From Patescibacteria group bacterium (lineage in GTDB: Bacteria > Patescibacteriota > CPR2 > UBA1875 > CAIMLA01): 64,000 nt of DNA. Shown here piece by piece: positions 15,703 to 60,036 of the stretch. How positions within the stretch are numbered: position 1 is the stretch's first letter; every line of letters begins with the position of its first letter. Location: the NCBI GenBank assembly GCA_041738615.1, contig JBGSPL010000003.1:114352-178351 (forward strand), in the 5' to 3' direction. The translations under genes and the position numbers were made by a program. A model generated the notes under the pieces. That model searched no databases, was not told the origin of the DNA, and saw nothing but the letters and a program-made list of their open reading frames with translations.

Positions 15703-15742
15703 GAGTTACCTACCCCTCTGAGCCGCAGCTCGGTCAAAATTG

Positions 15743-15796
15743 ATTTTCCTCAACACCCAAGGGACGATGAGTCGCCCACTGCGTGCTGAGGAAAAT
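15743..15796 (-). promoter_or_regulatory. Imperfect inverted repeat (TTTTCCTCAAC...GCTGAGGAAAA) in D5 5' leader
   Basis: 11-bp arms with 1 mismatch, 33-nt spacer. Confidence 0.35.
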
Positions 15797-30787: not shown

Positions 30788-31005
30788 ACAAAAATAATGC
30801 CTACAAAAAGCATTATCTTATATTTTGGTGGGCCTGGTATCAAATAATTTACACCTTATCTTAGAAGAGACTAGCCGCTGGCGAACCATTCTTAGTATTG
30901 AGTATGAGAGATATAAGCTTGAAAGGAGTTACGCTCCCTTGTGTTAGTTGCACTAGTGATTACTAGTAATTCTCCACGTAGGGTCGGCGTAGAAAAAGTA
31001 AAACT

Positions 31006-31428
31006 ATGTCATTAGCAGATAGGTTCCACCCAACAAAATATGATGAGAGGTACATACACTTTGCTTTATGCGTGAGTAGTATGGACACTGTCGCTGCTGC
31101 CCTTGATGAACTATACAACAAAGGCTATTCGCCTGGTAACAAGATTGGGAGAGTTAAAAATGAAACCGAGGCTGAACATCTACTTGAGATACTCAATACC
31201 CCCGGAGCGCTTACCTGTGTCCTAAACGTAAAGGGACTAGAAGCACAGTGGCCAAGATTTGAGTACATTAAGTCCAACCTAACAGGCTATATTTACTACT
31301 TTTTATGTAGTGACTGTGGCAAGAGAGTAAAGTTTCTCTACCACACTAACTCGAGTTATGGGTATAAGTGCAGAGACTGTCAGAGGCTTCGATATCCTCC
31401 AAACAAGAAGTACCTATATAACCTATAG
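31006..31428 (+). CDS. Hypothetical protein with C-terminal zinc ribbon
   Basis: CSDCGKRV...CRDCQRL. Confidence 0.45.
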   Translation: MSLADRFHPTKYDERYIHFALCVSSMDTVAAALDELYNKGYSPGNKIGRVKNETEAEHLLEILNTPGALTCVLNVKGLEAQWPRFEYIKSNLTGYIYYFLCSDCGKRVKFLYHTNSSYGYKCRDCQRLRYPPNKKYLYNL

Positions 31429-31677
31429 GTCCTCGAGCATCACTGACAGATCAACCTTCATCGCTTTTGACATTCTCCACACAGTATAAACACTCGGCGA
31501 GTACCTTCCCGTTTCTATGTGTCCAATGTAGGCGCTGTCATACCCAGCAGCTTCTGCTAACTTTTCCTGAGTAAAGCCATTCGCCTTTCGAACTTCCTTA
31601 ATTCTTAAGCCTATCTTCTTAGCGAAGTCTTTCTTCTGCTTGGCCTTTTCTAAAATATCTAAATCTCTAAACTCCAT
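31423..31677 (-). CDS. XRE-family helix-turn-helix transcriptional regulator
   Basis: 84 aa; FTQEKLAEAAGYDSAYIGHIETGRYSPSVYTVWRMSKAMKV. Confidence 0.8.
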   Translation of the reverse strand: MEFRDLDILEKAKQKKDFAKKIGLRIKEVRKANGFTQEKLAEAAGYDSAYIGHIETGRYSPSVYTVWRMSKAMKVDLSVMLEDL

Positions 31678-31743
31678 AACAAGATTATCGGTGTATTCGT
31701 AGATAATTCTTATGGCGTAGACATAGACTTTTCACATAATAAG

Positions 31744-32124
31744 TTGTATATTTTGCCTATGAGTAAAACAAAGTACTACAGTTACGTTTTTGTGGGGATA
31801 CTGTTAGGCGCTATGGCGGGACTACTCTTCACGTTCGTTAAGGTGAACTACTTTGAGAAAACAAAAAGCGGAATGTTTGCTGTACACAAAGAGTGTGTCC
31901 AGTGGAATGAAGCCTGTATCGACGCGTGCGAAGACTCTCGCGACGACGTTCGGGGCGGTAGCTGTAGTAGTTGCTGCATATTAGAAGATGACGTTGTAGA
32001 AACCCTTGGAGACCGACTTTCTTCAGAAGCAAAACTATACGGCCTTGTCTTTGCTTTTGGCCCTGGCTTACTTGTGGGGCTTGGACTAGCAGAAGATAAG
32101 AGAAAAAGGATAGAAAATGTTTAA
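31744..32124 (+). CDS. Hypothetical small membrane protein
   Basis: 126 aa. Confidence 0.4.
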   Translation: MYILPMSKTKYYSYVFVGILLGAMAGLLFTFVKVNYFEKTKSGMFAVHKECVQWNEACIDACEDSRDDVRGGSCSSCCILEDDVVETLGDRLSSEAKLYGLVFAFGPGLLVGLGLAEDKRKRIENV

Positions 32125-32302
32125 ACAAATGGATCGCTCAAGAAAGTTTGAGTTGTTTATAGGTATTCCTATAGGAGTTACCCTTATCAACATACTTAAA
32201 CCTGGTGCCCTAATAGCAATGGGGATATTTCTATTGTTCTTCTTTGGTGCCGGCCTTATTGGAGCCATAACAGACAAGGACCAGGATGAAAAAGCCAAAT
32301 AA
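32117..32302 (+). CDS. Hypothetical small membrane protein
   Basis: 61 aa, overlapping start/stop with neighbours. Confidence 0.35.
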   Translation: MFKQMDRSRKFELFIGIPIGVTLINILKPGALIAMGIFLLFFFGAGLIGAITDKDQDEKAK

Positions 32303-32525
32303 ACAAGCGCTAGATGATCTCTACGAGTTTGGGCTTGATTTGTTCAGTAACGAACCAACAACTAAACCGTACAATATTGACTACAAGCCAGGTTACGGAC
32401 CAAATGGGAGCGCTCTTCAAAGACTCTTGCATCGCTGCTTAATGGGTCTTATAGTTATCGCTTTTCTGGCGGTTCCTGTTATTACCTTGCTGGGTATTTG
32501 GGCGCTACTGACGAGGTTACTTTAA
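32286..32525 (+). CDS. Hypothetical small membrane protein
   Basis: 79 aa. Confidence 0.35.
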   Translation: MKKPNKQALDDLYEFGLDLFSNEPTTKPYNIDYKPGYGPNGSALQRLLHRCLMGLIVIAFLAVPVITLLGIWALLTRLL

Positions 32526-32562
32526 TTTGCTTATGGCTTGTCAAAGGGATTAAAATATAGCT

Positions 32563-32889
32563 ATGACAAAAATGTTAGAAGAACTATCTAAAGACTTCGT
32601 GCCGAAAACGCCCCTAGGGCATATTTGGAATATAATTCTTAGTTTTTTTGCCCTAAGTATTCACCTTTCGATAGCTGTATTCGTTATGAAAGCCTTCGCA
32701 CAGAGAGTTTATATGACCGACCTGGATAGTCTTTACCTCGTCTGGTTTTGGCTGCCCTGGGTGGCCTTTGCTGTGTGGGTACCGATTGGGATAAAATTGA
32801 AGAAAATCAAACACCCAGTTTTAACCTCATTCGCAGTAGTTATTTGGTTAATTGCATGGTTCGGTGGACTAGTTTCGGCGGTACAGTAG
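32563..32889 (+). CDS. Hypothetical small membrane protein
   Basis: 108 aa, 3 TM. Confidence 0.4.
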   Translation: MTKMLEELSKDFVPKTPLGHIWNIILSFFALSIHLSIAVFVMKAFAQRVYMTDLDSLYLVWFWLPWVAFAVWVPIGIKLKKIKHPVLTSFAVVIWLIAWFGGLVSAVQ

Positions 32890-32939
32890 AGGTGAATGAC
32901 CACTAGTCATAGTGGAAAGAAATTGTTTTCTCTGTTATA

Positions 32940-33959
32940 ATGACGAATATGAAGGAAGTTAATGTGGCCAAAGAAAAAATAACTGACCTAATAAAAGAAC
33001 TCGAAGTTGAAAGAAAATCAAAAGTTATCGTCTTTATTACGGGCGATAAACAGCCAAACGAACAGTTTGGAACTCAGGTCCACCCTGAGCAGTTGGTTTT
33101 CTTCCGCAAAACTCTTGAAGATATGGGTTCGACTGATAAGATATCACTTGTTTTAGACACTAGGGGTGGAGCTCTTGAAATGCCTTGGCCACTAGTAAAC
33201 CTAATAAGAGAATACTGTAAACGATATGAAGTTATCATTCTAGAAAAGGCACTAAGTGCCGGAACGCTAATCGCTTTAGGCGCCGATAAGATCGTTATGC
33301 AGCCATTCTCACACTTAAGCCCAGTTGACCCTGCTACTTTTATTCCCAATGGCAACCCTAATGTTCTAGAAAAGCTTGAGATAGAAGACATTATAGGTTT
33401 CATCGACTTCGCAAAAGAAAAGGTTGGCATAGCCGAACAGGCAGCTCTTTCAGACGTTATGAAGGAACTAACTAAGCAGATTAAACCGACACTCTTAGGC
33501 TCGGTTAACAGAACATACGCCCTCATAAGAAAGCTTGCTAGACAGCTACTGTCCCTGCACGGAAGCAAACTCACCGAGAAACAAGTCAATGAGATTACAG
33601 AGCACCTGACCCAGAAGCTTTACTCCCACAGTTACCTGATTAACAGGAAAGAGGCAAAAGAGATTATAGGCTTCGGTAATATTATTGAGAAATCTACTGG
33701 AAAGACACGTGAAATATCAACAAAGATAATGGACTACTACAGAGACCTGATGGATGTTGATAAAGAGTTTAACCCACCGGCTTTACTTGCAGACAAAGAG
33801 ACTGTTGACTACTCGGTCGTAGCAGCTGTGGTCCAAAGTTCAGCAAAGAAGTTCTCGTTTACAAACAAACTTAGACTTACCAAAATATCCGACCCTTCAG
33901 GAAGACTAAATATTAACTTAGAAGTCATCGAGAGAAAATGGTTAGAGGAAAAAGAATAG
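32940..33959 (+). CDS. SDH-family (ClpP/crotonase-fold, S49-like) serine protease
   Basis: 339 aa; VFITGDKQ...LVLDTRGGALEM...SAGTLIALGADKIVMQPFSHLSPVDP. Confidence 0.6.
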   Translation: MTNMKEVNVAKEKITDLIKELEVERKSKVIVFITGDKQPNEQFGTQVHPEQLVFFRKTLEDMGSTDKISLVLDTRGGALEMPWPLVNLIREYCKRYEVIILEKALSAGTLIALGADKIVMQPFSHLSPVDPATFIPNGNPNVLEKLEIEDIIGFIDFAKEKVGIAEQAALSDVMKELTKQIKPTLLGSVNRTYALIRKLARQLLSLHGSKLTEKQVNEITEHLTQKLYSHSYLINRKEAKEIIGFGNIIEKSTGKTREISTKIMDYYRDLMDVDKEFNPPALLADKETVDYSVVAAVVQSSAKKFSFTNKLRLTKISDPSGRLNINLEVIERKWLEEKE

Positions 33960-34186
33960 GAGTAACTATGTTTAGTACTTGTAACACTGTGTGCGCGTCT
34001 AATAATAAAGTCCTTACTTTCAGAAGTTCGACTGCAAATGGTAAAGTCGAAACACATTATAATGTTATTGAGCCTTATATTATAAGCAAAACTAATATCG
34101 TCAATAATCAATCGGCCACCGAAGAGATGGACAATGATTTTGATGTGAAGATTAACAAACAATTTTTTCAAACAAAGAATATTTAG
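33938..34186 (+). CDS. Hypothetical protein
   Basis: 82 aa, overlaps protease stop. Confidence 0.3.
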   Translation: MVRGKRIGVTMFSTCNTVCASNNKVLTFRSSTANGKVETHYNVIEPYIISKTNIVNNQSATEEMDNDFDVKINKQFFQTKNI

Positions 34187-34189
34187 TAA

Positions 34190-34693
34190 ATGTACATTCC
34201 TAGCAGAGAAATTGATAAAACCATATTTTATCAAGGGGATGTTATAAAGAACTTCCCCTTTTTTGTTTTGTCTGAGCTTGAAGAAAAAGTAGCTGCCATA
34301 AAAGAAGCTGGCGAGGGTACAATTGAAATTAAATCGAAGCTAGTTGACGTTATGATACTTTCTCAAACCTGCGATATCCAACGCCGAGACCAAGTCATCG
34401 TAGCTCCAATAGCTTCAATGGCATCTGGGGTAGAGAGCGGTGAATTGAAAGCAAACATACTGGATAATATCCGTGGGCGAAAAATCAACTTCCTATTTTA
34501 CCTCCCTGAAAGCCCTGATCTTATCCCAGAGTCTTACTGTAATCTTCAGCTCATCTACTATGTTTCTCCTGCGTTACTAAATAGTTTTGCAGACAATAAA
34601 GCAGTTACGCTAAGCGATTGGGGAAGACACCACCTTAGCTGGGCCCTCAGTAATTACTTTGGACGCCCAATAATTAGCAAGGTAAGGGACTAG
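34190..34693 (+). CDS. Hypothetical protein
   Basis: 167 aa. Confidence 0.45.
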   Translation: MYIPSREIDKTIFYQGDVIKNFPFFVLSELEEKVAAIKEAGEGTIEIKSKLVDVMILSQTCDIQRRDQVIVAPIASMASGVESGELKANILDNIRGRKINFLFYLPESPDLIPESYCNLQLIYYVSPALLNSFADNKAVTLSDWGRHHLSWALSNYFGRPIISKVRD

Positions 34694-35049
34694 TCTTTTG
34701 ACTTTAGTGGGGATGGTTTGATATAATATAGCTACAATTTGATTTTCGAAATGAGGTGTCCTGCGTGATCGCGTGGGCATTTTTTAATTTCGAGAGGCGT
34801 TGTGTGGGTCAAGGGCTAAACAAAACTGATTATGAGACACTTGAGAATGAGCAGGCGGAGGCCTGGGCCAGTCTGCTCTATTCTATGTTCCGCAAGAAGA
34901 AACAACGTGAAGCTTTGCAAAGCCCTGGAGGTAATAATATAATGGTATTGGACACAAATAACGACGAAGCAAGAAGGCAGTGATGGCAGTCTCTTATTCC
35001 TTGTCGTTAAGGAGTGTCCAGAGGCTGCCATCTTTGTTAGGAGTATTCT

Positions 35050-36635
<1,586 letters not shown>

Positions 36636-43684: not shown

Positions 43685-44089
43685 TTAGTTTAGCCCGTGA
43701 TCGTGGAAGCAGTCGGCATAGGCCTTGTCTACTGTGATTATATGGTTGGTGAGCCAGCTCTTCATGAAGTCCATGACCTTCATCGCATATTCGTCTTCTT
43801 GCCCAACATAATTCTGCTGAAAATCTGCCACTGTGTCACGGAACTTTTGGTGAACTCCCTTGTGTGAAGCCGAGTCGGGATAGTCAAACTTGTCAAAGTA
43901 TTTCTCTTCGGTTGCAAAGTGGTAGTTCGCATAGGCCGCAAGCTGGTCTAAAATATCGCCAAGGATAATTTCTTCGCTCCCTACCTCTACCGTGTCGTAT
44001 AAATCGTTGATAAGTAAGACGAACTTTTTATGTTGCTCGTCTATCTCGGCGACTTCTACTTCATAATCTGGTAACCAATTGATGTACAT
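43685..44089 (-). CDS. Hemerythrin-like metal-binding protein
   Basis: 134 aa; H/E/D ligand spacing (IDEQHK..., HF..E, H..F, H.D). Confidence 0.7.
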   Translation of the reverse strand: MYINWLPDYEVEVAEIDEQHKKFVLLINDLYDTVEVGSEEIILGDILDQLAAYANYHFATEEKYFDKFDYPDSASHKGVHQKFRDTVADFQQNYVGQEDEYAMKVMDFMKSWLTNHIITVDKAYADCFHDHGLN

Positions 44090-44331: not shown

Positions 44332-44437
44332 AGCGACAAGCCGAGGAGGCGAGACGGAGTTGAGAGGTGTACCGTTCTTTTATCAAGACTTGGTTTCGCC
44401 AGCCGGCGAACAGGGTCCCGGAAAGGGGGCGAAAGGT

Positions 44438-46615
44438 ATGTTCTGCGAATCCGCTGACAGTATCACGGTCGGGAAGCGTTCCTTCAGCTTGAGCTACAAG
44501 ACGAACCAAGGGATCATTGCTCTTCTGGAAGGCGCCGAAGGTCCGATGTCTCCGGGAGACAAGAAGAAAGCATACGACTTCATGGATCAGCGGCGCCAGG
44601 AACTCCTTACGCGCCTCGATGACCTCTTCTCAGAAGAGGCTTTCATGAAACTCCAAACGGAGGCTATGAGGCTTCTGCTCACCAATCCCAGCTACAAGGA
44701 GGAAAAGGCAGTAATCTGCCAGATTCTCGGCAACGAGCTCTGGACGATCTACGGCTCATTCGTCAACGGCCGCTACCCAACCCAGATACTCCAAGGACAC
44801 GACGACTCCATCGGCAAACTGGCCAAGGAAACGGAGCATCACAAGCTCGAGATGGTCTACAACCTTCTGGAGCTATGCTACGTGGTGGTCCTGCACATTG
44901 CCGGTATGCACCTGAAGACCGAAGGTGTCATGAGTGAGTGCCACTGTTGGCCTACGCTTCCTCTGAACACCTGGGTTGCAGGGGAGGTCAAAAGCCGTTG
45001 CAATGGTGTGAAGTCACTCCTGGCAAAACGTCGCTATGACCCCAAGGGTTTCCAGTCGGAGCACATTCCTAAGAGCAGCTCCAATGGAACTCGTGGACAC
45101 AAGCGCGCTGCACTTCCGCCTGCAGAGCTCCCCTACGAAGATGGGGATGACGACAGCGATGTTGTCGGCTCGCAAGAAGAAACACTCGACGGCCTCGAAC
45201 TTGAAACCGACTTTGAAGGTCATGACGACGCCGACGATGTATCACCAGCAGAACCCGAGACCGTACACGAACCTGCTGTGGTAGCGAATGTCGAGAAACC
45301 ATATCAGCTAGGTTTCGAGACGGTTCCGCAGGAGTTTCGTGACCACTTTCTGGAAGTACTGAAGTGCACCGATGGTGTCGATGGAGAGCATCCGCTCTCT
45401 ATACACCGCAAGCAGCTGAGCGAGGCGGCGCGGTCTCACCTCCCCGAAATGGGAGTAGCAGGGCTCGTGGTGCCAAACCGCACTGCTGCGCCTGAACCGT
45501 TCCGCCTGTGGTTCACTCTTGCTCCGGAGTACGAAGATCTCATTACAGAGGCTCAATCTGGATCTCTAGACCCATCCATCGAAGCCAAGGAGGCACCGAC
45601 CATGGGTAAGCGGCAACGTCCAGTGCTAGAAGTACTGGCACTGATTCCCGACGACCTGAAGACGTCCGTCGAGGACTGCCTTCGTTGCATCAAGCGACAC
45701 GAGGCTCCCTACAACATCGTGAAGGGGGACCTTGCGGAGAAGACGTTCGGAGACATTCCCAAGCTCCTTGAGCTGGGAATTCTCCGCGGGGCGGGGCAGC
45801 ACAGCCTCTCTTCCCCCTTCACCGCGCTCGTGAAGCCGTACCAAGGAGGACACCTCAAGGGCATGGTCTATACCGGGCCTGCGCAGGAGTCGTCCCCGGC
45901 ACCTGAACCGCCCAGTGTTCCCTCTGCAACGAGCGGCCCCGACGCGAAGTTCCGTCCCGGTGGCAGACGGCCACCGCAGCTGGGCATCGATTCCGTTCCC
46001 GAAACAGCTCGCGAGCTGTTTGTACGGATCATAAAGGTCGCAGAATCTCCGGACGCTATCGTCACCGGACAGCGGCGAACAGGCCTCTTCCACAAGACCG
46101 ATCTTCGGAACGCCGACGCAGCAAGGCTTGTCGAGCTTCTCGACCTAGGACTGCTGCGCTACACCCAGTCCAGCTACCAGTGGCACGTCAAGTCCGAGTA
46201 CTTCGACTTGATCCGCGAAGCCCAGCAGGGCAAGCTGGACTACATCCTCGAGGGCTCTCCGGCAGAACCGACTGGCGCACCCTCGCCCCCGAATCAGGGG
46301 TCCGAGCCCACACCGCCGGTCCCGACACCACCGGCAGGAGCGGGGATCGGGGGCAACCTGGTTCCCTGCACATCTCTTCCTGAATTCGGAGGACTCCAGT
46401 TCGGACTCACACCTGAACTGGTGCTGGTTCTCATAGGACTCAGTGACGTCCAGTTCAATGAGGAGGGCCAGCTCGTGGTCATCTCCAACAACGTCACGGA
46501 CGAGGTTGGCTGGAACGACGAGCTCGTGAGTGAGCTTCTCGCCACCGGTGCGCTACGCTGCACTGATGCGGCTCTTTGCTTCGGGCTCGTCATCGACGCC
46601 AAACTCACCCTCTAG
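44438..46615 (+). CDS. Island F gene F1: large acidic hypothetical protein with three ~85-aa internal repeats (start uncertain: TTG 44360 or ATG 44438)
   Basis: GC-rich; RBS AAAGGGGGCGAAAGGT-ATG; repeats (T/S)VP(Q/E)xxR(D/E)xF...EY(E/F)DLI(T/R)EAQ(S/Q)G(S/K)LD. Confidence 0.5.
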   Translation: MFCESADSITVGKRSFSLSYKTNQGIIALLEGAEGPMSPGDKKKAYDFMDQRRQELLTRLDDLFSEEAFMKLQTEAMRLLLTNPSYKEEKAVICQILGNELWTIYGSFVNGRYPTQILQGHDDSIGKLAKETEHHKLEMVYNLLELCYVVVLHIAGMHLKTEGVMSECHCWPTLPLNTWVAGEVKSRCNGVKSLLAKRRYDPKGFQSEHIPKSSSNGTRGHKRAALPPAELPYEDGDDDSDVVGSQEETLDGLELETDFEGHDDADDVSPAEPETVHEPAVVANVEKPYQLGFETVPQEFRDHFLEVLKCTDGVDGEHPLSIHRKQLSEAARSHLPEMGVAGLVVPNRTAAPEPFRLWFTLAPEYEDLITEAQSGSLDPSIEAKEAPTMGKRQRPVLEVLALIPDDLKTSVEDCLRCIKRHEAPYNIVKGDLAEKTFGDIPKLLELGILRGAGQHSLSSPFTALVKPYQGGHLKGMVYTGPAQESSPAPEPPSVPSATSGPDAKFRPGGRRPPQLGIDSVPETARELFVRIIKVAESPDAIVTGQRRTGLFHKTDLRNADAARLVELLDLGLLRYTQSSYQWHVKSEYFDLIREAQQGKLDYILEGSPAEPTGAPSPPNQGSEPTPPVPTPPAGAGIGGNLVPCTSLPEFGGLQFGLTPELVLVLIGLSDVQFNEEGQLVVISNNVTDEVGWNDELVSELLATGALRCTDAALCFGLVIDAKLTL

Positions 46616-46633
46616 CGCCACAGGCGCTAGAAC

Positions 46634-46690
46634 CAAGGGGCTACCTGCACAGCACTCGAGAGAGTGGCTGCCTGCTGGTAGCCCTCTTTC
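46634..46690 (+). terminator. Long-hairpin terminator copy 1 (GGGGCTACC...GGTAGCCC CTCTTTC) after F1
   Basis: ~85% identical to 47312-47367. Confidence 0.6.
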
Positions 46691-46700
46691 TTTACCTATA

Positions 46701-46736
46701 TATAGCCTTTACACGAAGGCTATATTGTGGTACAAT
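46701..46736 (+). promoter_or_regulatory. Promoter TTTACA-N17-TACAAT for F2 with overlapping 9-bp inverted repeat TATAGCCTT-N6-AAGGCTATA
   Basis: IR 46701-46724 overlaps -35 (46708-46713); -10 at 46731-46736. Confidence 0.5.
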
Positions 46737-46782
46737 ACTGCACGAAACTATGTACCTGTCAGCAACCGACCAAGGGGGATCC

Positions 46783-47304
46783 GTGAATTGCACGTTGCAA
46801 GTCGCCACCATCGTACTTCTTGCGATGCTCGAGGCAGACAAGCTGCCTATCGAGATGATTCCTGACGAGTTTGAGTACGAGATTTACCTGATTGCGCGTG
46901 AGCACGCTCTTACAACCCAGAACTACGAGTTCGCTCTCCATCTCTCCGAGAGTAGAGAGCGTTCACGCTGGATCAAGGAAACCAACGGAGACCGACTGAT
47001 AGTGATATGGGAAGCTCTCGGTTGGGTCGAGGTCGGATTCCATAGTCCGTTCTGGTCCGGCAAGAAGCGCTATGTCCTCCCGCGCCAATACCGCTCCTAC
47101 CCACCATGCGAAAAGCGTGAAATGGACGAAGCGGAGTTGGATCAAGCGCTAGAACAGGCCCGTGAGAGCCTGTCCAAGGGCTATCGCATCACGTTCTCGA
47201 GAGGCTGCTCGCGCGAAACAGCCTGGCGTTTGTTCGAAGCCGGGTTGGTATCCTGCAACCCGCCGAGACAGCCCAACATGGTTCTCGCACCTGAATGCCG
47301 CTAG
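46783..47304 (+). CDS. Island F gene F2 hypothetical protein (~173 aa from GTG 46783; alternative ATG 46753)
   Basis: RBS CAAGGGGGATCC-GTG; upstream promoter; ORF open from 46576 but that region holds F1's terminator. Confidence 0.4.
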   Translation: MNCTLQVATIVLLAMLEADKLPIEMIPDEFEYEIYLIAREHALTTQNYEFALHLSESRERSRWIKETNGDRLIVIWEALGWVEVGFHSPFWSGKKRYVLPRQYRSYPPCEKREMDEAELDQALEQARESLSKGYRITFSRGCSRETAWRLFEAGLVSCNPPRQPNMVLAPECR

Positions 47305-47311
47305 GCGGCAA

Positions 47312-47367
47312 CAAGGGGCTACCCGCACAGACTCGAAGAGAGGCTGCCTGCTGGTAGCCCCTCTTTC
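47312..47367. terminator. Long-hairpin terminator copy 2 after F2 (shared with convergent VanW gene)
   Basis: Divergent copy of 46634-46690. Confidence 0.6.
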
Positions 47368-47379
47368 GTATCTACTTAA

Positions 47380-49098
47380 TTAGTGCGGATATTTATCGGG
47401 ACTGTCATACTTGCTTGTAAACTTATCGTTGTCCGTGAGTTTACCTGCTGCATCTAAGATATGTCGGTAAAAGGTGGCTGTGAATGATTTCGGTCCGCGC
47501 GCCTCCTGCTCCGTAATGCTCGAGGTAACCTGTTCGACCGTATCAACCTGACCAGTCGCATCGGCATTACCCGAGAAAGAAACCTTACCTGGCTTCTTGG
47601 TGCCATAAAAGTCAAAGTAAACCATATTCCCCACTACGCTAGTCTGTATCAGAATATAATGGCCAGTATCGTTTTTGAACCGGAGGTCTGGAGTCGGTAG
47701 ATAAATCGTGGCATCCACGCCGTACGGTTTGTAATACACAATCGGATAGGCATGATTGTGCCTCTCTAGTATCGGCAGTCCTGCATTTAGCGCCGCACGA
47801 AAGGCAGTTGATGATACCTGGCAAAGTCCGCCTCCGTACTCTGGCACTGTTTTATCGGCAAGGATTACGAGCTCTGGCAAGTACCCAGTACTTGCCTCTA
47901 CTGGCCCTAGGATACTATTGAAGGAAACATCTTCGTCCGGCTTTATGAGGACGCCGTTGAACTTACTAGCCCCCGTCTTGTAATTGTGCTGCCGATTTAC
48001 AGGCGAGCCACTGGCATCAGTCCAACCACGAGAAATTTGCTCGGTAAGACCCAGTTCAGCCATATTTGCCTCACTTACGCTCGGGTTCTTCGCAGAGAGA
48101 GCAAGCTTTACGGCGTGAGTATCCTTTACTGCAGACTGAATGTCATTGATTAGCCTCGTAGTATCGAGCTCTTGCCCCACCACAGAGGGACTCTTTACCA
48201 CCATCTTGCCGTCTACATTGTCTAGAACCACGTTCGCTGCTGCCCTGTTTACCTTCGCAGCGACATCCTTCGCATAAGTGTAGACCATATTCTGATCTAG
48301 ATAGTAGTAGCCATCATCCTCGCGGGGCAATAATGTCGGTAGTTCTACCATTGTAGTTGCGGCTACAGGAGTGATTTTGAGCCATTTACGAAGGTTTTCG
48401 GTGCCAATCTGCTCCTCTTTACCCCCAGACACACTCACTGGGCGCTGCAATGCCTGCTGTACGCTCACTACGAGTGCTGAGGCATCGTTTGCGGTCAACA
48501 TCGGTGAGATAGGGGCAATACGAAGGTTGATAGTGCTAGCGAGCCTAGATAGGCCCTCACGGAGGGCTACACGACTCTCGGGAAGTAACAACCGCTGCCC
48601 GCTCTTCTCTGGAGCGATAATCCCATTTTCCAAGTTTGTAATCTTAGCATCTTCGGGGGCAATAGCTAGCGCATCATATCTCTCGAGAAGCGTATTGCTC
48701 ATGCCTTCGTCATTGTACGTAAGGTCCGCATTGTGACTCATACCGAGGTACTTGGAAAGCCCAAAGTACCCTCTTTCTTCGCGTGCAAGCGCCTCAACTA
48801 GGGTTTCTTCTACCTTCAGCTCCTTCACAAAGCTAGAAACAGATTTATCCTGGCCAGAAACACTAACCTCGACTGCCGAATACTGCTTCCAGCGCTGCTC
48901 GAGCAGTGTCTTCGCGTCTGCCTCGGTCTTGCCCGATACAACGACCCCTGAAATCTCGCTACCTAGTGCAAAACGGTGCTCAAAAACGATTGGTTGTAGT
49001 ATCACGAGCACCAGGTAAGCCCCAAAGGTAATACCAAAAGCGGCCACGACCCTAGGAAGTAGCCGAGATTTATCCACTTTACTAGTACCCCCTACCAT
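47380..49098 (-). CDS. VanW/YoaR family protein with N-terminal TM
   Basis: 572 aa; VanW motif PEYGGGLCQVSSTAFRAALNAG. Confidence 0.8.
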   Translation of the reverse strand: MVGGTSKVDKSRLLPRVVAAFGITFGAYLVLVILQPIVFEHRFALGSEISGVVVSGKTEADAKTLLEQRWKQYSAVEVSVSGQDKSVSSFVKELKVEETLVEALAREERGYFGLSKYLGMSHNADLTYNDEGMSNTLLERYDALAIAPEDAKITNLENGIIAPEKSGQRLLLPESRVALREGLSRLASTINLRIAPISPMLTANDASALVVSVQQALQRPVSVSGGKEEQIGTENLRKWLKITPVAATTMVELPTLLPREDDGYYYLDQNMVYTYAKDVAAKVNRAAANVVLDNVDGKMVVKSPSVVGQELDTTRLINDIQSAVKDTHAVKLALSAKNPSVSEANMAELGLTEQISRGWTDASGSPVNRQHNYKTGASKFNGVLIKPDEDVSFNSILGPVEASTGYLPELVILADKTVPEYGGGLCQVSSTAFRAALNAGLPILERHNHAYPIVYYKPYGVDATIYLPTPDLRFKNDTGHYILIQTSVVGNMVYFDFYGTKKPGKVSFSGNADATGQVDTVEQVTSSITEQEARGPKSFTATFYRHILDAAGKLTDNDKFTSKYDSPDKYPH

Positions 49099-49319
49099 TA
49101 GTCCCTCGCTAGTAACTCGTTGATTACCGTCTTTGCTAGCGCTTCTCTATCCTTGCGAGCATCCTCGTCTCTTTTGGCTACCAGCACTAAAACATCGCCC
49201 TCTTTACTGTGCTCAGGAAGCTTCTCCTTGGGCCAGAGTATTTGCTCTCCATGATGGGTAAGTACGGCGTAATCCCCCTCGAAGCGGTCTATAGTAGTTT
49301 TAAGTTCGTTAATAGTCAT
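49098..49319 (-). CDS. Small hypothetical protein (DUF3006-like), co-transcribed with VanW gene
   Basis: 73 aa, stop/start overlap. Confidence 0.45.
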   Translation of the reverse strand: MTINELKTTIDRFEGDYAVLTHHGEQILWPKEKLPEHSKEGDVLVLVAKRDEDARKDREALAKTVINELLARD

Positions 49320-49382
49320 GATTACATTCTATATCAACTAGTACTTAATTCCAAACGAAGCAATTAATTACAAAATGCAACG

Positions 49383-49411
49383 CGCCCCGGGTCCTGAAAC
49401 GGAACCGGGGC
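49383..49411 (-). terminator. Island G terminator CGCCCCGG...CCGGGGCG followed by T-rich on minus strand
   Basis: 8-bp GC stem, 14-nt loop. Confidence 0.55.
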
Positions 49412-49439
49412 GGTTGTGTTGCTTGTTGTGCGCGACCTA

Positions 49440-49562
49440 GATGTCGACGAGGGTGGCCCAATCGGTGGGCACCGCATCTACATCTGAGGGAGTAATGTCG
49501 ACCGACTCACTGTCGACAGTGACACTATCCTGTGGGCTCTTGTCATCGGCGGCCATGTGGTT
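49440..49562 (-). CDS. Island G micro-ORF (40 aa, acidic)
   Basis: Perfect AAGGAGG RBS 11 nt before ATG; downstream of G1 in same orientation; short, so tentative. Confidence 0.3.
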
Positions 49563-49586
49563 ACCTGCCTCCTTGGTGGAAAGTGG

Positions 49587-50045
49587 CTAAACCGTGACCA
49601 TCGCCGAGTCGGCCACAAGGACGTTCTGCCAGTGCGTAGCCGCGTACGGATCCGGGATGTTCTTCCGCTGCCAGAAGATGACGAAACGGATCTTGTCCAC
49701 GTCGATGCCGTTGGCGAGGAGATGCTTCTTGATCTCCTCAACCGCCTCGGGAAGCTTGGCCCAAGCTTCGGGCTCATCCATGGGACGAGCCCGGCACTCC
49801 TCGTGCGCGGCCAGCGAGATGACGCTGACGCCGAGGTGATTGACCGCAAAGGCAAGCCGCTCATGCAGAGCGAGACGCCTGTGCTCTGTGGCTCCGCCGA
49901 GGATAACCCCGATGGGACCAAACTCGTCACACGGGATGACCTGATCGGCGCCGAACCTGGTGACGAGTGCCATTCTCATTGCACCCAACGTGTCGCGCGG
50001 ATCGCTGCAAGCGATATTCGCGACAACCAACTTCTCTCCGGCCAT
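49587..50045 (-). CDS. Island G gene G1: GC-rich xenolog of neighbouring beta-carbonic-anhydrase-like (CxDxR...HxxC) protein, ~152 aa
   Basis: RBS GAGAGGGGAACGC-ATG; IACSDPRD...AAHEECRARP aligns with native CMDGR...AHQGCAKN in 50194..50619. Confidence 0.5.
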   Translation of the reverse strand: MAGEKLVVANIACSDPRDTLGAMRMALVTRFGADQVIPCDEFGPIGVILGGATEHRRLALHERLAFAVNHLGVSVISLAAHEECRARPMDEPEAWAKLPEAVEEIKKHLLANGIDVDKIRFVIFWQRKNIPDPYAATHWQNVLVADSAMVTV

Positions 50046-50109
50046 GCGTTCCCCTCTCGTCGAACTGACAATGTGCAACACAATTCCAGATTATACACTA
50101 TTTTTGCAA

Positions 50110-50134
50110 AAAGTCCAGCTTTTGGCTGGACTTT
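50110..50134 (-). terminator. Terminator AAAGTCCAGC-caaaa-GCTGGACTTTTT for native 50194..50619 gene; TATAAT follows on minus strand
   Basis: Perfect 10-bp stem + T5 on minus strand; putative G1 promoter TGGACT-N16-TATAAT overlaps. Confidence 0.55.
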
Positions 50135-50193
50135 AAGGCGTAAATTTGTAATGCAATGGATTCTGAAATTAGTTCAGAATGACGCTGAATATA

Positions 50194-50619
50194 TTAGGCT
50201 TCGATAAGCTTGTCGGCTATGTGGTGAATCTCCCAATCAAGATCTGTGTTCTTGGTAACCCAAAGACCGGTGATGCGGACACCCACTGGTAATCCCCATT
50301 TGGTAGCAAGAATCTCTACTGACTCTTTGAGCTCTGCAAGCTGCTCCTCGTCCGAGATTGGATTCTTGGCGCAACCCTGATGAGCGACGATGGCAACATT
50401 GCGAGAGTTGTGTCCATTGATGGAGATAAGAGTCTCTGCCTTGTAGTGCTCTACGATAGCGGCATCGCCTTTTACTATCATATTTGTAGGACCGGCTGGG
50501 TTTGGTGCATCCACAACGTCAAGCGCAAACTGTTCCTTCATCCACTTTGCCACTGGTTCCTGGGTACGGCCATCCATGCAGTTGAGCATGGTTCCGAATT
50601 TGGTATTTGTATCAGACAT
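50194..50619 (-). CDS. Native small Cys-Asp-Arg / His-x-x-Cys protein (beta-carbonic-anhydrase-like zinc ligand pattern)
   Basis: 141 aa; LNCMDGR and VAHQGCAKN motifs; homologous to island G gene. Confidence 0.45.
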   Translation of the reverse strand: MSDTNTKFGTMLNCMDGRTQEPVAKWMKEQFALDVVDAPNPAGPTNMIVKGDAAIVEHYKAETLISINGHNSRNVAIVAHQGCAKNPISDEEQLAELKESVEILATKWGLPVGVRITGLWVTKNTDLDWEIHHIADKLIEA

Positions 50620-50653
50620 AAAAATATCCTCCTAGATTACTTTAGTAGATTGT

Positions 50654-51108
50654 TTACTGCTTAAGATCGCTGATGTCTGCACCGCGGCGGCGCTTGATAC
50701 CAGAGTGCTTGGTGATAGAACGAAGCTGGGTAGTGATGCGTGCAAGCTCGGCTTCGGATGTTGCGATTAGAGCGTGATCGGTACCAGCGCTGGCTTTTGC
50801 CTCCTCGACACGTTTCTTGGCGGCCATAATCTCGACTTCATTGAGCTCGTGTAGATGCTCTGCGGCATCAGCGAGAATGAGAACCTCGATTCCATCCTTC
50901 ACATAGACAAAGCCACCATAGACCACTGCAACCTGCTCCTTACTCCCCTGCTTTACCAAAATGTCGCCGTTCACTACCTGGGAAATAAGCGGCTGATGGT
51001 GAGGCAGGATAGCAATCTGCCCAGTGTCTGTAGGCAAAACAACCTCATCGACCATATCGTCGAGGAGAGTTCGCTCTGGAGAGATAATTGTCAGATGGAT
51101 CTGTGCCA

Positions 51109-51109
<1 letters not shown>
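50654..51109 (-). CDS. atpC: F1 ATP synthase epsilon subunit
   Basis: Operon position; beta-sandwich + helical hairpin pattern. Confidence 0.85.
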
Positions 51110-53353
<2,244 letters not shown>

Positions 53354-53354
53354 C

Positions 53355-54863
53355 TTACGCTTCCTCTCTCTCCTGGCTTAGCTTCTCGAGATGCTTCTTG
53401 AGGCCCTTCTCTACAGCGTCTGTAAGGTCTAAATCTTTAGCGAAGGTCTTCTGAAAATCCTTATCCTTTGCAATTGCTGCCGAAAGTTCTGTCTCAAAGC
53501 TTTGGATTTCGCGGATAGCGACACCATCTAGGAAGCCATTGGTTGCTGCATATAGAATAGCAACCTGGTCGACTACTGGCCTTGGGAGGTACTGGTCCTG
53601 CTTTAAAACCTCTACTATACGCTTGCCACGCTCGATCTGCTTCTTGGTGTCCTCGTCGAGGTCAGATGCGAACTGTGAGAATGACTGAAGTTCACGATAC
53701 TGGGCCAGCTCCAGACGAAGTTTGCCGGCGACTTTCTTGATTGCCTTTACCTGGGCTGCTGATCCTACGCGAGAAACAGAGAGACCTACATTTAGCGCAG
53801 GACGGATGCCCTGATAGAACAGGTCCGACTCGAGGTAAATCTGTCCATCCGTAATGGAAATCACATTCGTTGGAATATAGGCAGATACGTCTCCAGCCTG
53901 AGTCTCGATGATAGGAAGTGCAGTAATAGAACCTCCACCGAACTTTTCGTCGCGTCTACAAGCACGCTCTAGTAGGCGTGAATGCAAATAGAAAACGTCC
54001 CCGGGGTAAGCTTCGCGTCCCGGTGGACGTCTCAGAAGCAGAGATATCTCGCGGTAAGCCCAAGCGTGCTTAGAAAGATCATCATAAACGATGAGGACAT
54101 CTTTGCCTTGATCCATAAAGTATTCTGCAATCGCAACACCTGAGTATGGAGAAATAAAGAGTGATGGTGCTGGATCAGAGGCCGAAGCGTTTACAATCAC
54201 AGTATTGGCCATGGCACCGTGTTCCTCGAGCTGAGAAACGATACGGGCTACCTTGGAATTCTTCTGACCAATCGCAACGTATACGCAGATTACACCTGTG
54301 TCCTTTTGATTGATAATCGCATCAAGAGCAATAGCTGTCTTACCAGTTTGGCGGTCACCGATGATAAGTTCGCGCTGTCCGCGTCCGACTGGAATAACGG
54401 CGTCGATAGCCTTGATTCCGGTCTGAAGTGGAACATTTACCGACTTACGTTCGATAACACCTGGGGCAATCTTTTCTACTGGGTAGCTCTTGGTAGTGCT
54501 CAGCTTGCCCTTGCCATCAATTGGGTTGCCCAGTGAGTCTACTACACGTCCAATGATGTCGTCTGAAACAGGAATTTCGAGTACTTTGCCAGTACAGCGA
54601 ACTTCATCGCCTTCCTTGATCGCAGTAGGATCACCCATGATAACGATACCTACGCTATCTTCCTCTAGGTTGAGGGCGATACCATAAATGCCGCCGGCAA
54701 ATTCGACCATCTCAAAAGACATTACTGCCTGAAGACCAGCTGCCTTGGCAACACCGTCTCCGACCGAAATGACCTTACCAATCTTGTACGAGCTAACCGA
54801 TGGCTTGTAATCCTTGAGTTGCTCTTCAATTTTTTGTATCAGGATTTCTCTATTACCGTCCAT
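53355..54863 (-). CDS. atpA: F1 ATP synthase alpha subunit
   Basis: GDRQTGKTA Walker A; 502 aa. Confidence 0.95.
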
Positions 54864-55261
54864 TATTTAGCTCCTGGCGTCAATTTAGTTTGTTTGATGT
54901 GCTCGGCAAGCTGCCCTACGCGACTGCGAAGTGTATTATCAATTACGGTCTCGCCGCGACGGATGATAACGCCTCCAAGCAAATCCTCGTTTATGAGGTA
55001 AGTAACCTGAATCTTGCTCTCAAATTTCTTTTCAAAAATAGTCTCAATAAGCGTTTTCTGAACCTTTGACAGCTCATTCGCGCTTGTCACCGTGACAAAA
55101 CTGTCACGAAACTCCCGTTCCAGCGACATCTTGCGAAGCAACATGTCGGCCTTCTGTGGAAATCTCTCGACAATCTTCTTTGCCAATCGTTCCACGGCAG
55201 CTGGATCTTCGTCCTCTGTCATAAGCTGCAGTATTTGAATGGCATCAAGAGTGACTGACAT
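54863..55261 (-). CDS. atpH: F1 ATP synthase delta subunit (short form)
   Basis: 132 aa, operon position. Confidence 0.75.
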
Positions 55262-55262
55262 A

Positions 55263-55766
55263 CTACTTCTTCTCTACAAAGCCCGCTAGAGCCTCGTTTA
55301 TCAGTGCGTCGTCGTATTTTTTGGTGTCATTCTTTAGAAGTGAAGTAAGCGAAGATTCGACAAGCTTGGCTACGTCGTCTTTGGCGCTCTCGATAATCTG
55401 CTCTCTCTCCTTTTGTCCAGTGATCTGGGCATCGGCAATGATTGTCTTTGCCTTGGTCTCTGCCTCGAAGGTAGCGTTCTTATCGATTTCTTTTGCCTCT
55501 ACTTTTGCAGCGTCAACAATCTTGTCAGCCTCTACTGTCGCTTTGGCGATAAGCTTCTCTTTGTGCTTTTCAATCTCTTCATACTCTTTCTCGATTGCGG
55601 CAGCCTTTTTTAGTGACTCATCGATCTTCTCAGTACGTGTGTCTAGCATTTTTACAATTGGTTTGTAAAGAAACTTCCAAAGGATCAAAAAAAGCAAAGC
55701 AAAATTCACGCCCTGGGCTATGAGCGCCTGTACGTCAATTCCTAGTTTTGTAAATGCTTCTCCCAT
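55263..55766 (-). CDS. atpF: Fo ATP synthase subunit b
   Basis: N-terminal TM then long charged helix. Confidence 0.85.
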   Translation of the reverse strand: MGEAFTKLGIDVQALIAQGVNFALLFLILWKFLYKPIVKMLDTRTEKIDESLKKAAAIEKEYEEIEKHKEKLIAKATVEADKIVDAAKVEAKEIDKNATFEAETKAKTIIADAQITGQKEREQIIESAKDDVAKLVESSLTSLLKNDTKKYDDALINEALAGFVEKK

Positions 55767-55789
55767 TGTGGTTTCCGCCTTTCAGAAGG

Positions 55790-56017
55790 TTAAACGAATT
55801 TGATGATAAGAGCGATAACAAGAGAATACACGGCGATAGCCTCTACGAAAGCACAAGTAAGAATCAGGCTTGGCTGAATCTTGTCAGCAGCTTCTGGGTT
55901 ACGACCCATTGCTTCTAGACCTTTACTTGCGATCATAGCGATACCCATAGCTGGTGCGATTGCTCCAAGGGCGATTGTTAGGGCTGGTGCGAGTGATTTT
56001 ACTACTTCTGGTTCCAT
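55790..56017 (-). CDS. atpE: Fo ATP synthase subunit c
   Basis: 75 aa two-helix hairpin with conserved carboxylate. Confidence 0.9.
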   Translation of the reverse strand: MEPEVVKSLAPALTIALGAIAPAMGIAMIASKGLEAMGRNPEAADKIQPSLILTCAFVEAIAVYSLVIALIIKFV

Positions 56018-56066
56018 TTTTTGGGACTCCTTTTATTAATTAATTTAACGTTACTAAATATAGGCT

Positions 56067-56810
56067 CTAATGAGCGTCATGTGATGTAGCCGCCATCGAA
56101 AAGAAAACGAGGGCAAGCATAGTGAACACGAGAGCTTGGATAAAACCGACAAAAAGCTCCAGAAAATAAAACGGTAATGGAATAATGTAAGGCGCTATAG
56201 CACCCAGCACAATCAGCAGAACTTCCCCTGCAAACACATTACCGAACAAGCGGAAAGCAAATGAGATAATACGAACCAGCTCGGAGGCGAGCTCAATAAG
56301 GCCAACGAAGAAATTGATTGGATTGCTGAAATTGAAGAATTTCTTACCGTATTTGAAAACGCCGATAGCACCAATCCCGAAAACCTGAGTCATAAACACC
56401 ACCACTATACCGAGCATAATTGTAGTATTTAGGTCCGCTGTACCGGCTCTTAGTAGTGGAACAAGAACAGTCTCGTGCTCTACTACCTCATGAAAACCGA
56501 CAGTCCCCACCCCTGGGAAAAGGCCAAACCAGTTGTTAAACATAATAAATATGAAGAATGTCGCAATTAGCGGGAAAACCTTGCGTGAGTACGCCTTGTC
56601 ATGAATAACACTATCAGTAAGGGCTACGAGTTTTTCGATGCCCATCTCTGCAATATTCTGTAAGCCCTTTGGGATCAAGTCCATCTTGCGGGTGGCAAAG
56701 AGAGAAACAATCCAGAGGATGATCAGGACGCATAGGGTTGCCAACATACTGTTAGTCAAATGAATCGGTCCGAGCTCAAGAACTGGATTTGCCGCAATAG
56801 AGATGTGCAT
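56067..56810 (-). CDS. atpB: Fo ATP synthase subunit a
   Basis: 247 aa, conserved Arg in penultimate helix region. Confidence 0.9.
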   Translation of the reverse strand: MHISIAANPVLELGPIHLTNSMLATLCVLIILWIVSLFATRKMDLIPKGLQNIAEMGIEKLVALTDSVIHDKAYSRKVFPLIATFFIFIMFNNWFGLFPGVGTVGFHEVVEHETVLVPLLRAGTADLNTTIMLGIVVVFMTQVFGIGAIGVFKYGKKFFNFSNPINFFVGLIELASELVRIISFAFRLFGNVFAGEVLLIVLGAIAPYIIPLPFYFLELFVGFIQALVFTMLALVFFSMAATSHDAH

Positions 56811-58964: not shown

Positions 58965-59025
58965 ATATCCTGTTCGTTCTATCCAAGGAATCCTGCAAGG
59001 AATCCGAGAGGGGAAGGAAGGCACG

Positions 59026-59216
59026 TGAAGAACAGTCGAAGCCTGAGCCCAGAAGCTCGTGGTCGACAAGCGATACTGGGGCTTGTCGTCCTCACTATCG
59101 TTGTATCGCTACTGTTCGGCTACCTTGGTGCTACCGGCAAGATCAAGGCCAACTCGAACGGGAATAGCGTCAAGGCACGGCCTGGCGTGTCCGCCATCAC
59201 GACCGACACAAAGTAG
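59026..59216 (+). CDS. Island H gene H1: small membrane protein (63 aa, GTG start)
   Basis: RBS CGAGAGGGGAAGGAAGGCAC-GTG; single TM. Confidence 0.4.
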
Positions 59217-59226
59217 GGTGGTTCAA

Positions 59227-59661
59227 ATGGTAGAACAGCAGAACAATGGTGGCCGCTTCCGCTTCGTCCTGGGCACTCTAAGCTCAGGTGATAAGAGGGA
59301 GCCAGAAGCAGCGCTTCTGCAGCTACACTGGAAAAGGGTATCTTTCGAACCCTCGCCCGAGAAGAACGGTGTCGCAATCACCGAGAGCTGCTCCGCAGCA
59401 CTCCGGGCGATAAAGGTCTTCGCCGGCGAACAGCGGATGTGCACGTGCACTCCTGACGGTTACGAGTACCTCTTCTCCACCACTCTCTCCATCGAGACGG
59501 GTGGCGACGTGCCCGAAGGCCAGTTGGCAATCTTCTGGCCGAAACCTGGTGGCCACTGCGGACTCGTACGCGACGTCACCTTCTACACAATCGGTGACGT
59601 TCCGGACGAAAAGCTCGCGAGCATCATCGACATCATCGAGGCGCAGCTGCCTCACGACTAG
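59227..59661 (+). CDS. Island H gene H2: hypothetical protein (144 aa from MVEQQNN)
   Basis: GC-rich; listed ORF begins at 59059 but overlaps H1; ATG 59227 follows H1 stop by 10 nt. Confidence 0.45.
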   Translation: MVEQQNNGGRFRFVLGTLSSGDKREPEAALLQLHWKRVSFEPSPEKNGVAITESCSAALRAIKVFAGEQRMCTCTPDGYEYLFSTTLSIETGGDVPEGQLAIFWPKPGGHCGLVRDVTFYTIGDVPDEKLASIIDIIEAQLPHD

Positions 59662-59679
59662 CACACCTCGTGTGCACCT

Positions 59680-59751
59680 GCCCCGCCTGCATGACAACAA
59701 ACCGTTTGTTGCTCTTGCGAGCGGGGCGTTGTCATTTAAATATTATTTTTT
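59680..59751 (+). terminator. Compound hairpin terminator of island H followed by TTAAATATTATTTTTT
   Basis: CCCCGC...GCGGGG and ATGACAAC...GTTGTCAT stems then T6. Confidence 0.55.
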
Positions 59752-60036
59752 AGTTCTAAAAGCTTCTATAAACCCATCCGGTACCGGATCATCACCACCG
59801 TGATTCCATGGATTGCAGCGAATTATACGCCAACTACCCATAATGGTGCCGAGAATGACACCATGTTCCTCTATCGATCGCTTTGTATATTCTGAACATG
59901 TTGGCTTAAATCTACAGTATCCATGAGGAAAAAAACCTCGGAAAATACCATGATCAGGCGAGATTGTCTTCTGATACAGCGTTATCAGGCTTACAAACGG
60001 CCAACGAATAATCTTATTTAGAGTTTTCATCAGCAA
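59743..60036 (-). CDS. yidD: Membrane protein insertion efficiency factor YidD
   Basis: YCRFKPTCSEY motif; downstream of rnpA. Confidence 0.9.
   Translation of the reverse strand: MLMKTLNKIIRWPFVSLITLYQKTISPDHGIFRGFFPHGYCRFKPTCSEYTKRSIEEHGVILGTIMGSWRIIRCNPWNHGGDDPVPDGFIEAFRTKK

Follow-up and report, generated by a model that had tools for sequence, protein, structure and literature searches.

A GC-rich, hypervariable carbonic-anhydrase-like gene in a conserved slot behind the ATP synthase operon of Saccharibacteria

The DNA analysed here is a window of 64,000 nucleotides (nt) from a Patescibacteria genome (assembly GCA_041738615.1, contig JBGSPL010000003.1, positions 114,352 to 178,351), in which the ATP synthase (atp) operon is followed by two adjacent genes of the Pfam family PF20393 (Pro_CA_2, putative carbonic anhydrase): the conserved gene B (50194..50619) and the GC-rich gene A (49587..50045). 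According to the original prediction, made from this sequence alone, A would be a foreign gene inserted in this genome beside its native homolog. The comparison with related Saccharibacteria does not bear this out, as no donor was found, the site of gene A (hereafter the slot) is occupied in all 12 loci compared, its untranslated regions (UTRs) are homologous among them and its GC content follows that of the host. The slot is thus a long-standing variable site and not a one-off foreign insertion. The explanation that we favour, with slightly better than even confidence, is an old, clade-wide and separately transcribed Pro_CA_2 paralog, whose diverged alleles are occasionally swapped and whose open reading frame (ORF) is under a locus-specific GC pressure. 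Such a conserved slot, with an ORF both hypervariable and GC-shifted in at least 12 genomes, is more unusual than a simple xenolog.

The 12 loci come from independent assemblies (the window, L097, L007, L002, L090/L010, L093, L094, L004, L177, L092, L180 and L178), L097 being the sole close locus added by a metagenome scan, and their host genomes have 36-50% GC. In all of them a Pro_CA_2-like gene fills the slot, after B or, in L094, after atpC, coding for proteins of 142-200 amino acids (aa) with the C-x-D-x-R and H-x-x-C motifs (two of the 12 ORFs are cut by contig ends). An assembly chimera was ruled out by the presence of gene A in two assemblies of this genome, since it was also assembled independently in the Logan assembly of SRR28170474, and by its equivalents in 11 other independent contigs. 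In other phyla, a second Pro_CA_2 copy within 4-5 kb is missing from all 155 Pro_CA_2 loci compared.

The conservation of the slot does not extend to the protein that it encodes. Across loci, the identity of the flanking proteins is 80-91% for atpD, 57-86% for B, 60-90% for DUF3006 and 43-65% for atpC, and the slot proteins are mostly 20-38% identical or unalignable between genomes. The exceptions are a few pairs within a class, namely L004-L177 (84%), L092-L180 (54%), L007-L090 (39%) and the window with L093 and L094 (35-38%). The slot ORFs form allele classes that diverged deeply, and their distribution is decoupled from the relatedness of the flanks, with a Spearman rho of 0.08 between B identity and slot-gene similarity (p=0.56, 55 pairs). 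Thus, the window and L097 share 86% identity in B and 90% in DUF3006 with slot genes that cannot be aligned, B is 81% identical between L004 and L177, below the value of their slot genes, and it is 65% identical between L092 and L180. In the neighbor-joining (NJ) tree with 200 bootstraps, support was 87% for the clade of B, 97% for the class of the window, L093 and L094, and 91% for L007 with L090. A and B formed a monophyletic group in 2.5% of the bootstraps and, as they do not group in the tree, A is not a recent tandem duplicate of B, in agreement with what had been predicted. An ancient duplication and an ancient acquisition of the slot lineage would be indistinguishable on the saturated A branches.

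The features of the locus are the following, all of them on the minus strand of the window:

52508-53353, minus strand, atpG, upstream in the atp operon
51109-52467, minus strand, atpD, upstream of atpC
50654..51109, minus strand, atpC (F1 epsilon subunit), last canonical gene of the atp operon and conserved upstream flank; PF02823 on the identical L001 gene
50194..50619, minus strand, gene B, conserved Pro_CA_2 (beta-carbonic-anhydrase-like), 141 aa, PF20393
50110..50134, minus strand, intrinsic-terminator-like hairpin 3' of B, folding energy (dG) -16.6 kcal/mol
50090..50117, minus strand, promoter-like site of gene A, TGGACT-16-TATAAT, with the -10 hexamer at 50090-50095
50074..50083, minus strand, 5' UTR motif TTGTGTTGCA, recognisable in about 8 of the 12 loci
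50051..50058, minus strand, G-rich Shine-Dalgarno-like GAGAGGGG, 5 nt before the ATG of A
49587..50045, minus strand, gene A, GC-rich hypervariable Pro_CA_2 paralog, 152 aa, PF20393, with Cys13, Asp15, Arg17, His81 and Cys84 kept
49437..49556, minus strand, acidic 39-aa micro-ORF, with AAGGAGG at 49568-49574
49378..49416, minus strand, GC-rich terminator-like hairpin 3' of the A unit, dG -28.9 kcal/mol
49098..49319, minus strand, DUF3006 gene, PF11213 (E=4.9e-14), 90% identical in L097
47380-49098, minus strand, VanW gene, forming with DUF3006 the conserved downstream flank

Gene B, with an AGGAGG site in front, starts 34 nt past atpC and is probably the last gene of the atp operon. The hairpin at 50110-50134 (AAAGUCCAGC-CAAAA-GCUGGACUUU, then UU; z=-5.3, with 0 of 200 shuffles folding as well) closes the atp-B transcription unit, and its 3' arm doubles as the -35-like TGGACT of the A promoter, which matches 10 of 12 consensus positions. 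At the other end of gene A, the hairpin at 49378-49416 (z=-5.2) has outer arms CAAC(C)/(C)GTTG around the inner stem CGCCCCGG/CCGGGGCG and is followed by CATTTTGT; its 3' arm is resembled by the 5' UTR motif TTGTGTTGCA, a type of motif confined to the A locus, with no dispersed copies elsewhere in the 64 kb. The promoter-like site, the GAGAGGGG ribosome site, the AAGGAGG with its micro-ORF and the GC hairpin, all attributed to gene A in the original prediction, are therefore present. The micro-ORF lies in frame with A, 30 nt past its TAG, has no Pfam or NCBIfam match, belongs to a singleton cluster and has no corresponding sequence in the closest relative, L097; it is unique to this genome and only a tentative gene.

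The signals around the slot gene are preserved among the relatives. The TATAAT box is invariant in all 10 loci aligned, where the ribosome site has a GGG core with at least 90% conservation, and a terminator hairpin with a T-run follows B (or atpC, in L094) in every locus, the GCTGGACTTTTT arm being common to most of them. On the 3' side, a long hairpin with a T-rich tract is seen in all 10 loci that extend past the slot gene, its outer arms GCAAC.. / ..GTTGC being recognisable in nine and the inner-stem base CGCCCCG/CGGGGCG, or a one-base variant, in six. When the DNA of the window is compared to that of L097, the alignment extends from the 3' end of B across the terminator hairpin and the -10 box up to the ribosome site. 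It is lost at the start codon of A and recovered at the downstream hairpin's 3' arm (GTGTTGCATTT), from where it runs into DUF3006. Consequently, the transcription unit and its regulatory DNA are homologous across genomes and the hyperdivergence is confined to the slot ORF, which is hard to square with repeated capture of foreign genes.

Regarding base composition, gene A has 61.2% GC and a GC content at the third position of codons (GC3) of 0.77, compared to 49.1% and 0.53 in gene B and to window means of 0.48 (GC) and 0.51 (GC3). It tops both measures among the 62 window ORFs of at least 120 aa (z=2.5 and 3.4). The contrast described in the original prediction holds in that A is aberrant, even if it had been given as about 63%, and fails for B, which is not at about 45%. 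Taking B and/or atpC as the flank composition of each locus, the slot gene is richer in GC than its flanks in all 12 loci, by 13.9 points on average (range +3.5 to +22; sign test p=0.0005), mainly at third codon positions, where the offset goes from +5 to +55 points, as in L004 with a GC3 of 0.94 vs 0.43 in the flanks. It is the sole sustained GC spike in each relative locus of 5-12 kb, except in L094, which has none. Moreover, slot-gene GC is correlated with flank GC (r=0.73, p=0.008), also inside allele classes: in that of the window, L093 and L094, slot genes of 61%, 61% and 41% GC stand beside flanks of 51%, 46% and 38%, and in the pairs L007/L090 and L092/L180 it likewise tracks the host.

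The rise is even over codon types, with 0.68 vs 0.44 for pyrimidine-ending codons (NNY), 0.72 vs 0.38 for purine-ending codons (NNR) and 0.63 vs 0.35 for C+G at four-fold sites, and the coding strand is depleted of A and of T to the same extent, without A/T strand asymmetry. Being uniform and tracking host GC, the rise suggests that a local force operates in each host, rather than that the slot gene preserves the composition of a donor genome as a fossil. Translational selection was ruled out as its cause by this uniformity over the three codon types and by the ordinary GC3 of the atp flanks and of dnaK. Dual coding, or a conserved antisense ORF, was discarded likewise, because the antisense frame is open in only some loci, as high GC3 alone predicts. 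Nor is the GC island a structured RNA gene, as Rfam yielded no match up to E=1 and the protein model obtained from the ORF is of high confidence.

Both proteins belong to the same family. The two adjacent ORFs of the original prediction were confirmed as homologs with 25% identity over 141 columns (BLASTP, E=1e-5), and both exceed the gathering threshold of PF20393 (30 bits), with 124.1 bits (E=5.1e-36) for B and 33.1 bits (E=7.4e-8) for A. The motif pairs NCMDGR/IACSDPR, IVAHQGCAKNP/SLAAHEECRARP and WVTKNTD/FWQRKNIP, from which their relationship had been proposed, are present and aligned with each other. With the classical carbonic anhydrase model PF00484, A stays under the gathering cut-off (16.3 vs 25.7 bits, E=0.012, residues 57-88 only) and B gives no match, and the profile of B orthologs reaches the small beta-class carbonic anhydrases (beta-CAs; 3las and 1g5c) just marginally by sequence. 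The Cys-x-Asp-x-Arg ... His-x-x-Cys motif, comprising the zinc ligands and the catalytic dyad, is complete in A (C13, D15, R17, H81 and C84) and intact in 12 of 12 slot proteins; in an alignment of 19 A-type and B-type sequences, Asp15, Arg17, His81 and Cys84 do not vary, Cys13 being conserved at 90% or more.

From this alignment, an AlphaFold2 model of A was obtained with high local and global scores (pLDDT 90, pTM 0.86), in which the alpha/beta fold of the beta-CAs is seen. Thus, A is a bona fide member of PF20393 with a predicted beta-CA-like fold; beta-CAs are known as obligate dimers. Compared to the 'Cab'-type small forms of the beta-class (PDB 1g5c), A differs in being shorter (about 140-150 aa) and in staying below the PF00484 cut-off. 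The hydrolases of carbonyl sulfide (COS) and carbon disulfide (CS2) have the same fold, so the substrate of A is not fixed by it. The protein most likely binds zinc and catalyzes a CO2/bicarbonate-type hydration or a related COS/CS2-type reaction, regulated apart from B. By sequence search no solved structure was found for any member of PF20393, and the literature gave no paper naming PF20393 or Pro_CA_2 and nothing relevant on carbonic anhydrase in Saccharibacteria.

According to the favoured explanation, the terminator of B would be followed by a small separate transcription unit, composed of the -10 box, a short 5' UTR, the G-rich ribosome site, the ORF and the long hairpin terminator, with an ORF that would always be a second Pro_CA_2 with the complete zinc-site motif and the beta-CA fold. 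This paralog would date from the ancestor of the clade, and purifying selection on fold and ligands would keep it functional. Homologous recombination through the conserved flanks and UTRs would occasionally exchange alleles between lineages, and a locus-specific force would lift the GC of the slot, the candidates being selection on synonymous GC or a GC-biased repair tied to recurrent recombination. Between L004 and L177, the synonymous divergence (pS) of the slot gene is 0.32 vs 0.74-0.80 in the saturated flanks, which fits a recent exchange; for the same pair, the nonsynonymous divergence (dN) is 0.11 in the slot gene and 0.13 in B, and the ratio to synonymous divergence (dN/dS) of the slot gene is 0.27, in line with purifying selection. 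In addition, L097 is a mosaic at positions 1897-5123: its atpC has 78% identity to the L004 type and 46% to the window, next to a B and a DUF3006 with 86% and 90% identity to those of the window. This reflects either recombination between lineages, with a breakpoint between atpC and B, or a chimera of assembly. A positive relation of genic GC to recombination rate is reported for most bacterial species, and the cause is debated between biased conversion and selection (PMC11879095). The size of the GC shift, confined to one ORF while B remains ordinary, is beyond both as they stand.

Several points weigh against this explanation. Biased gene conversion should also touch the recombining flanks, yet the GC3 of B is ordinary, and we know of no mechanism by which, in bacteria, one ORF alone would gain up to 55 points of GC3. 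All slot genes cluster with just 35% bootstrap on saturated long branches, and a single origin is therefore tentative. The tree of B is poorly resolved, with 49-55% at several nodes, so the formal incongruence of the two trees is weak. The low pS between L004 and L177 could come from constraint at a GC3 of about 0.94 and not from recent transfer, L097 could in principle be a chimeric metagenome contig, and the enzymatic activity of A is a prediction only.

As for the alternatives, a purely in-situ divergence would make the slot gene an old tandem duplicate that evolves fast in every lineage, by relaxed or diversifying selection, and is never exchanged, with the GC rise as a local mutational bias. 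It agrees with a conserved regulatory DNA around a diverged ORF, with ligands and fold being kept and with a GC content that tracks the host, and the slot gene does evolve within classes at 0.8 to about 3.6 times the rate of B, as estimated from identities. However, because the within-class rate is no higher than this, steady fast evolution cannot yield the distances between classes, and rate differences of more than tenfold between pairs would be needed (window-L097 vs L004-L177). The rho of 0.08 between B and slot-gene similarity also counts against a clock-like vertical descent, and there is neither a template repeat or signature of a diversity-generating retroelement nor an A/T strand asymmetry. 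Divergence in situ is therefore considered rather unlikely.

In a serial xenologous displacement, the slot would be an integration hotspot that captured different GC-rich foreign Pro_CA_2 genes independently in each lineage. The slot genes are indeed as different as Pro_CA_2 proteins of different phyla, their monophyly reaches just 35% and all of them are GC-rich. Moreover, the slot is located at a synteny breakpoint, as the DUF3006-VanW block is inverted in some loci (L002 and L090) or replaced by other genes (L004, L007 and L178). What makes this displacement quite unlikely is that it implies an exact replacement of the ORF 12 times with the homologous UTRs and terminator arms left untouched, which is implausible, and that within allele classes the GC follows the host (window, L093 and L094; L007/L090; L092/L180). 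For the window allele, the only one for which the exhaustive search was run, no donor was found.

This search covered 1.84 billion representatives, being the clusters of about 15 billion proteins, and the HMMER scan of them returned two relatives of A, P0020 (34% identical) and P0021 (38%), besides a generic family member of 129 aa and a spurious repeat protein. Searching with a profile of A, P0020 and P0021 gave no further relatives, and among 5.8 billion proteins a word-indexed search recovered none but A itself. P0020 is encoded directly after the B ortholog in GCA_020026565.1 (L093) and P0021 directly after atpC, in the slot of L094. As these only specific relatives occupy the same slot in other Saccharibacteria, there is no donor lineage in the databases. 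No relatives of A were found in viral contigs or phage records, and plasmid records gave one marginal tblastn match (Halorussus plasmid, E=7e-3, with a cupin annotation); a phage or plasmid origin was ruled out, this match being the sole one. No integrase, transposase, tRNA or flanking repeats were found at the A locus.

A recent xenolog from a GC-rich donor, inserted beside B and perhaps guided by homology, would account for A having the top GC and GC3 of the window, for a GC pressure uniform over codon classes as in a GC-rich genome, for its own promoter and terminator and for A and B not being sister genes, but it is very improbable in view of the missing donor, of specific relatives that are only syntenic Saccharibacteria genes, of a slot full in 12 of 12 loci, of the promoter, ribosome site and terminator arms homologous across them, and of the lack of mobility hallmarks and of viral or phage relatives apart from one marginal plasmid match. 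Among the marks of a recent xenolog, A shows the atypical composition, and neither a donor lineage, an absence in relatives nor mobility hallmarks were found. The homology-guided insertion of the original prediction found no evidence. Its suggestion of a functional replacement or backup kept a single hint: L094 has lost B and retains just an A-type gene after atpC.

Two further mechanisms were considered and rejected. A diversity-generating retroelement would show a template repeat about 90% identical to a variable region, with differences specific to adenine. In gene A no repeat lies in the body of the ORF, no adenine-specific asymmetry occurs, and the divergence extends over the whole ORF; the one repeat pair touching A matches over 28 nt, with 71% complementarity, around the ribosome site and the start. 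The slot resembles an integron cassette with its attC site in having a promoter-proximal single ORF with an imperfect palindrome behind it, whose outer arms are conserved and whose centre varies, and a copy of the 3'-arm motif upstream of the ORF. It differs in that the arms GCAACAC / GTGTTGC do not fit RYYYAAC / GTTRRRY and that the hairpin is followed by a T-run, as in an ordinary terminator. An integron-like cassette was ruled out, since the 64 kb hold no array, integrase or other copy of the motif and the homology runs past the upstream motif to the start codon.

Hypervariable allelic loci with conserved flanks, swapped by homologous recombination, are known from the pherotype or specificity loci and the surface-antigen loci of naturally competent bacteria. 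The slot of A is similar to them in its conserved position, flanks and regulatory DNA and in its diverged allele classes decoupled from flank relatedness. Meanwhile, A encodes a predicted zinc protein, cytoplasmic and enzyme-like, instead of an established recognition or surface molecule, it is GC-richer than its genome, and allele replacement in its slot would be deduced from a comparison between genomes and not at population level. With horizontally acquired genomic islets it shares a sharp compositional break limited to one transcription unit; it differs from them by having no donor or mobility genes, by occupying the same site in all relatives and by a composition that shifts with the host.

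Compositional outliers are routinely taken as horizontal transfers, and here a GC-rich "foreign" gene is a clade-wide resident whose composition moves with its host, which calls for caution when islands are called in genomes of the candidate phyla radiation (CPR), which includes Saccharibacteria. With one small gene and conserved flanks in naturally competent organisms, the slot also lends itself to studying how recombination, selection and GC are linked, which is debated. Furthermore, it draws attention to PF20393, an uncharacterised beta-carbonic-anhydrase-like family that is tied to the ATP synthase operon in Saccharibacteria, with two copies under very different evolutionary regimes.

Concerning gene B, its orthologs always follow atpC, and the placement of a Pro_CA_2 gene at the end of the F1Fo ATP synthase operon (window 50194-56810; L002, L004 and L090) is specific to this clade: neither atpD nor atpC was found within 4-5 kb in any of roughly 157 Pro_CA_2 loci from other phyla. 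This suggests a beta-CA-like protein functionally linked to the ATP synthase.

Two loci of the comparison have a distinct organization. In L094 (1753-3180), the B gene is absent and the A-type gene is located directly after atpC and before DUF3006-VanW, with the smallest GC offset of all loci (+4 points). In L004 (6517-6762), B and the slot gene are separated by a low-GC gene (31%) of opposite strand, coding for an 81-aa GIY-YIG nuclease, as also seen in L005 and L006.

The window carries other GC-rich islands of 56-57% GC, at 12889-15794, 5536-6346, 44332-47425 and 58974-59757. Their proteins matched no significant Pfam family (one has three sub-threshold matches), and clustering at 90% identity leaves those looked up alone or with one other member. 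N-terminal transmembrane or signal-like segments are present in the ORFs at 13026-13595 (minus strand), 15133-15702 (minus strand) and about 59026-59216 (plus strand). A G-rich ribosome site like that of gene A occurs as GAGAGGGG at 13576-13583 (minus strand) and 59006-59013 (plus strand), as CAGAGGGG before 15702 and as ACGAGGGG before 14489. These islands may form one class with gene A. A broader idea, tentative and on the doubtful side, is that a locus-specific process diversifies certain genes toward GC in this clade, the slot gene being the one member traceable across genomes and the other Pfam-less islands further members. Such a process could be a GC-biased repair combined with frequent transformation-mediated allele exchange, or a selection for GC-rich coding in an expression class marked by GAGAGGGG. 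Flexible genes are usually AT-richer, and this rule would be reversed if flexible genes were linked to high GC here. A literature search on GC-rich hypervariable islands in Saccharibacteria found nothing relevant.

Inside the first of these islands, a 73-nt direct repeat (99% identical, 12911-12983 and 13751-13823) is positioned just 3' of two consecutive minus-strand GC-rich ORFs and resembles a 3' UTR or terminator that tandem cassettes have in common. The island at 44332-47425 is a 3.1-kb block with two ORFans of 751 and 184 aa, located between a hemerythrin gene (43685-44089) and VanW; as hemerythrin and VanW are adjacent in L094 (4901-4939), the block represents an insertion or deletion difference. 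Elsewhere in the window, a low-GC block at 31000-36635 ends in a 517-aa ORF (35050-36603), whose N-terminus is like that of a large serine recombinase, and abuts a tRNA-Met gene (36560-36635), being probably an integrated element. Lastly, a 115-nt inverted repeat with 78% complementarity (9466-9580 and 10245-10359) spans two tRNA-Met genes and their flanking hairpins.

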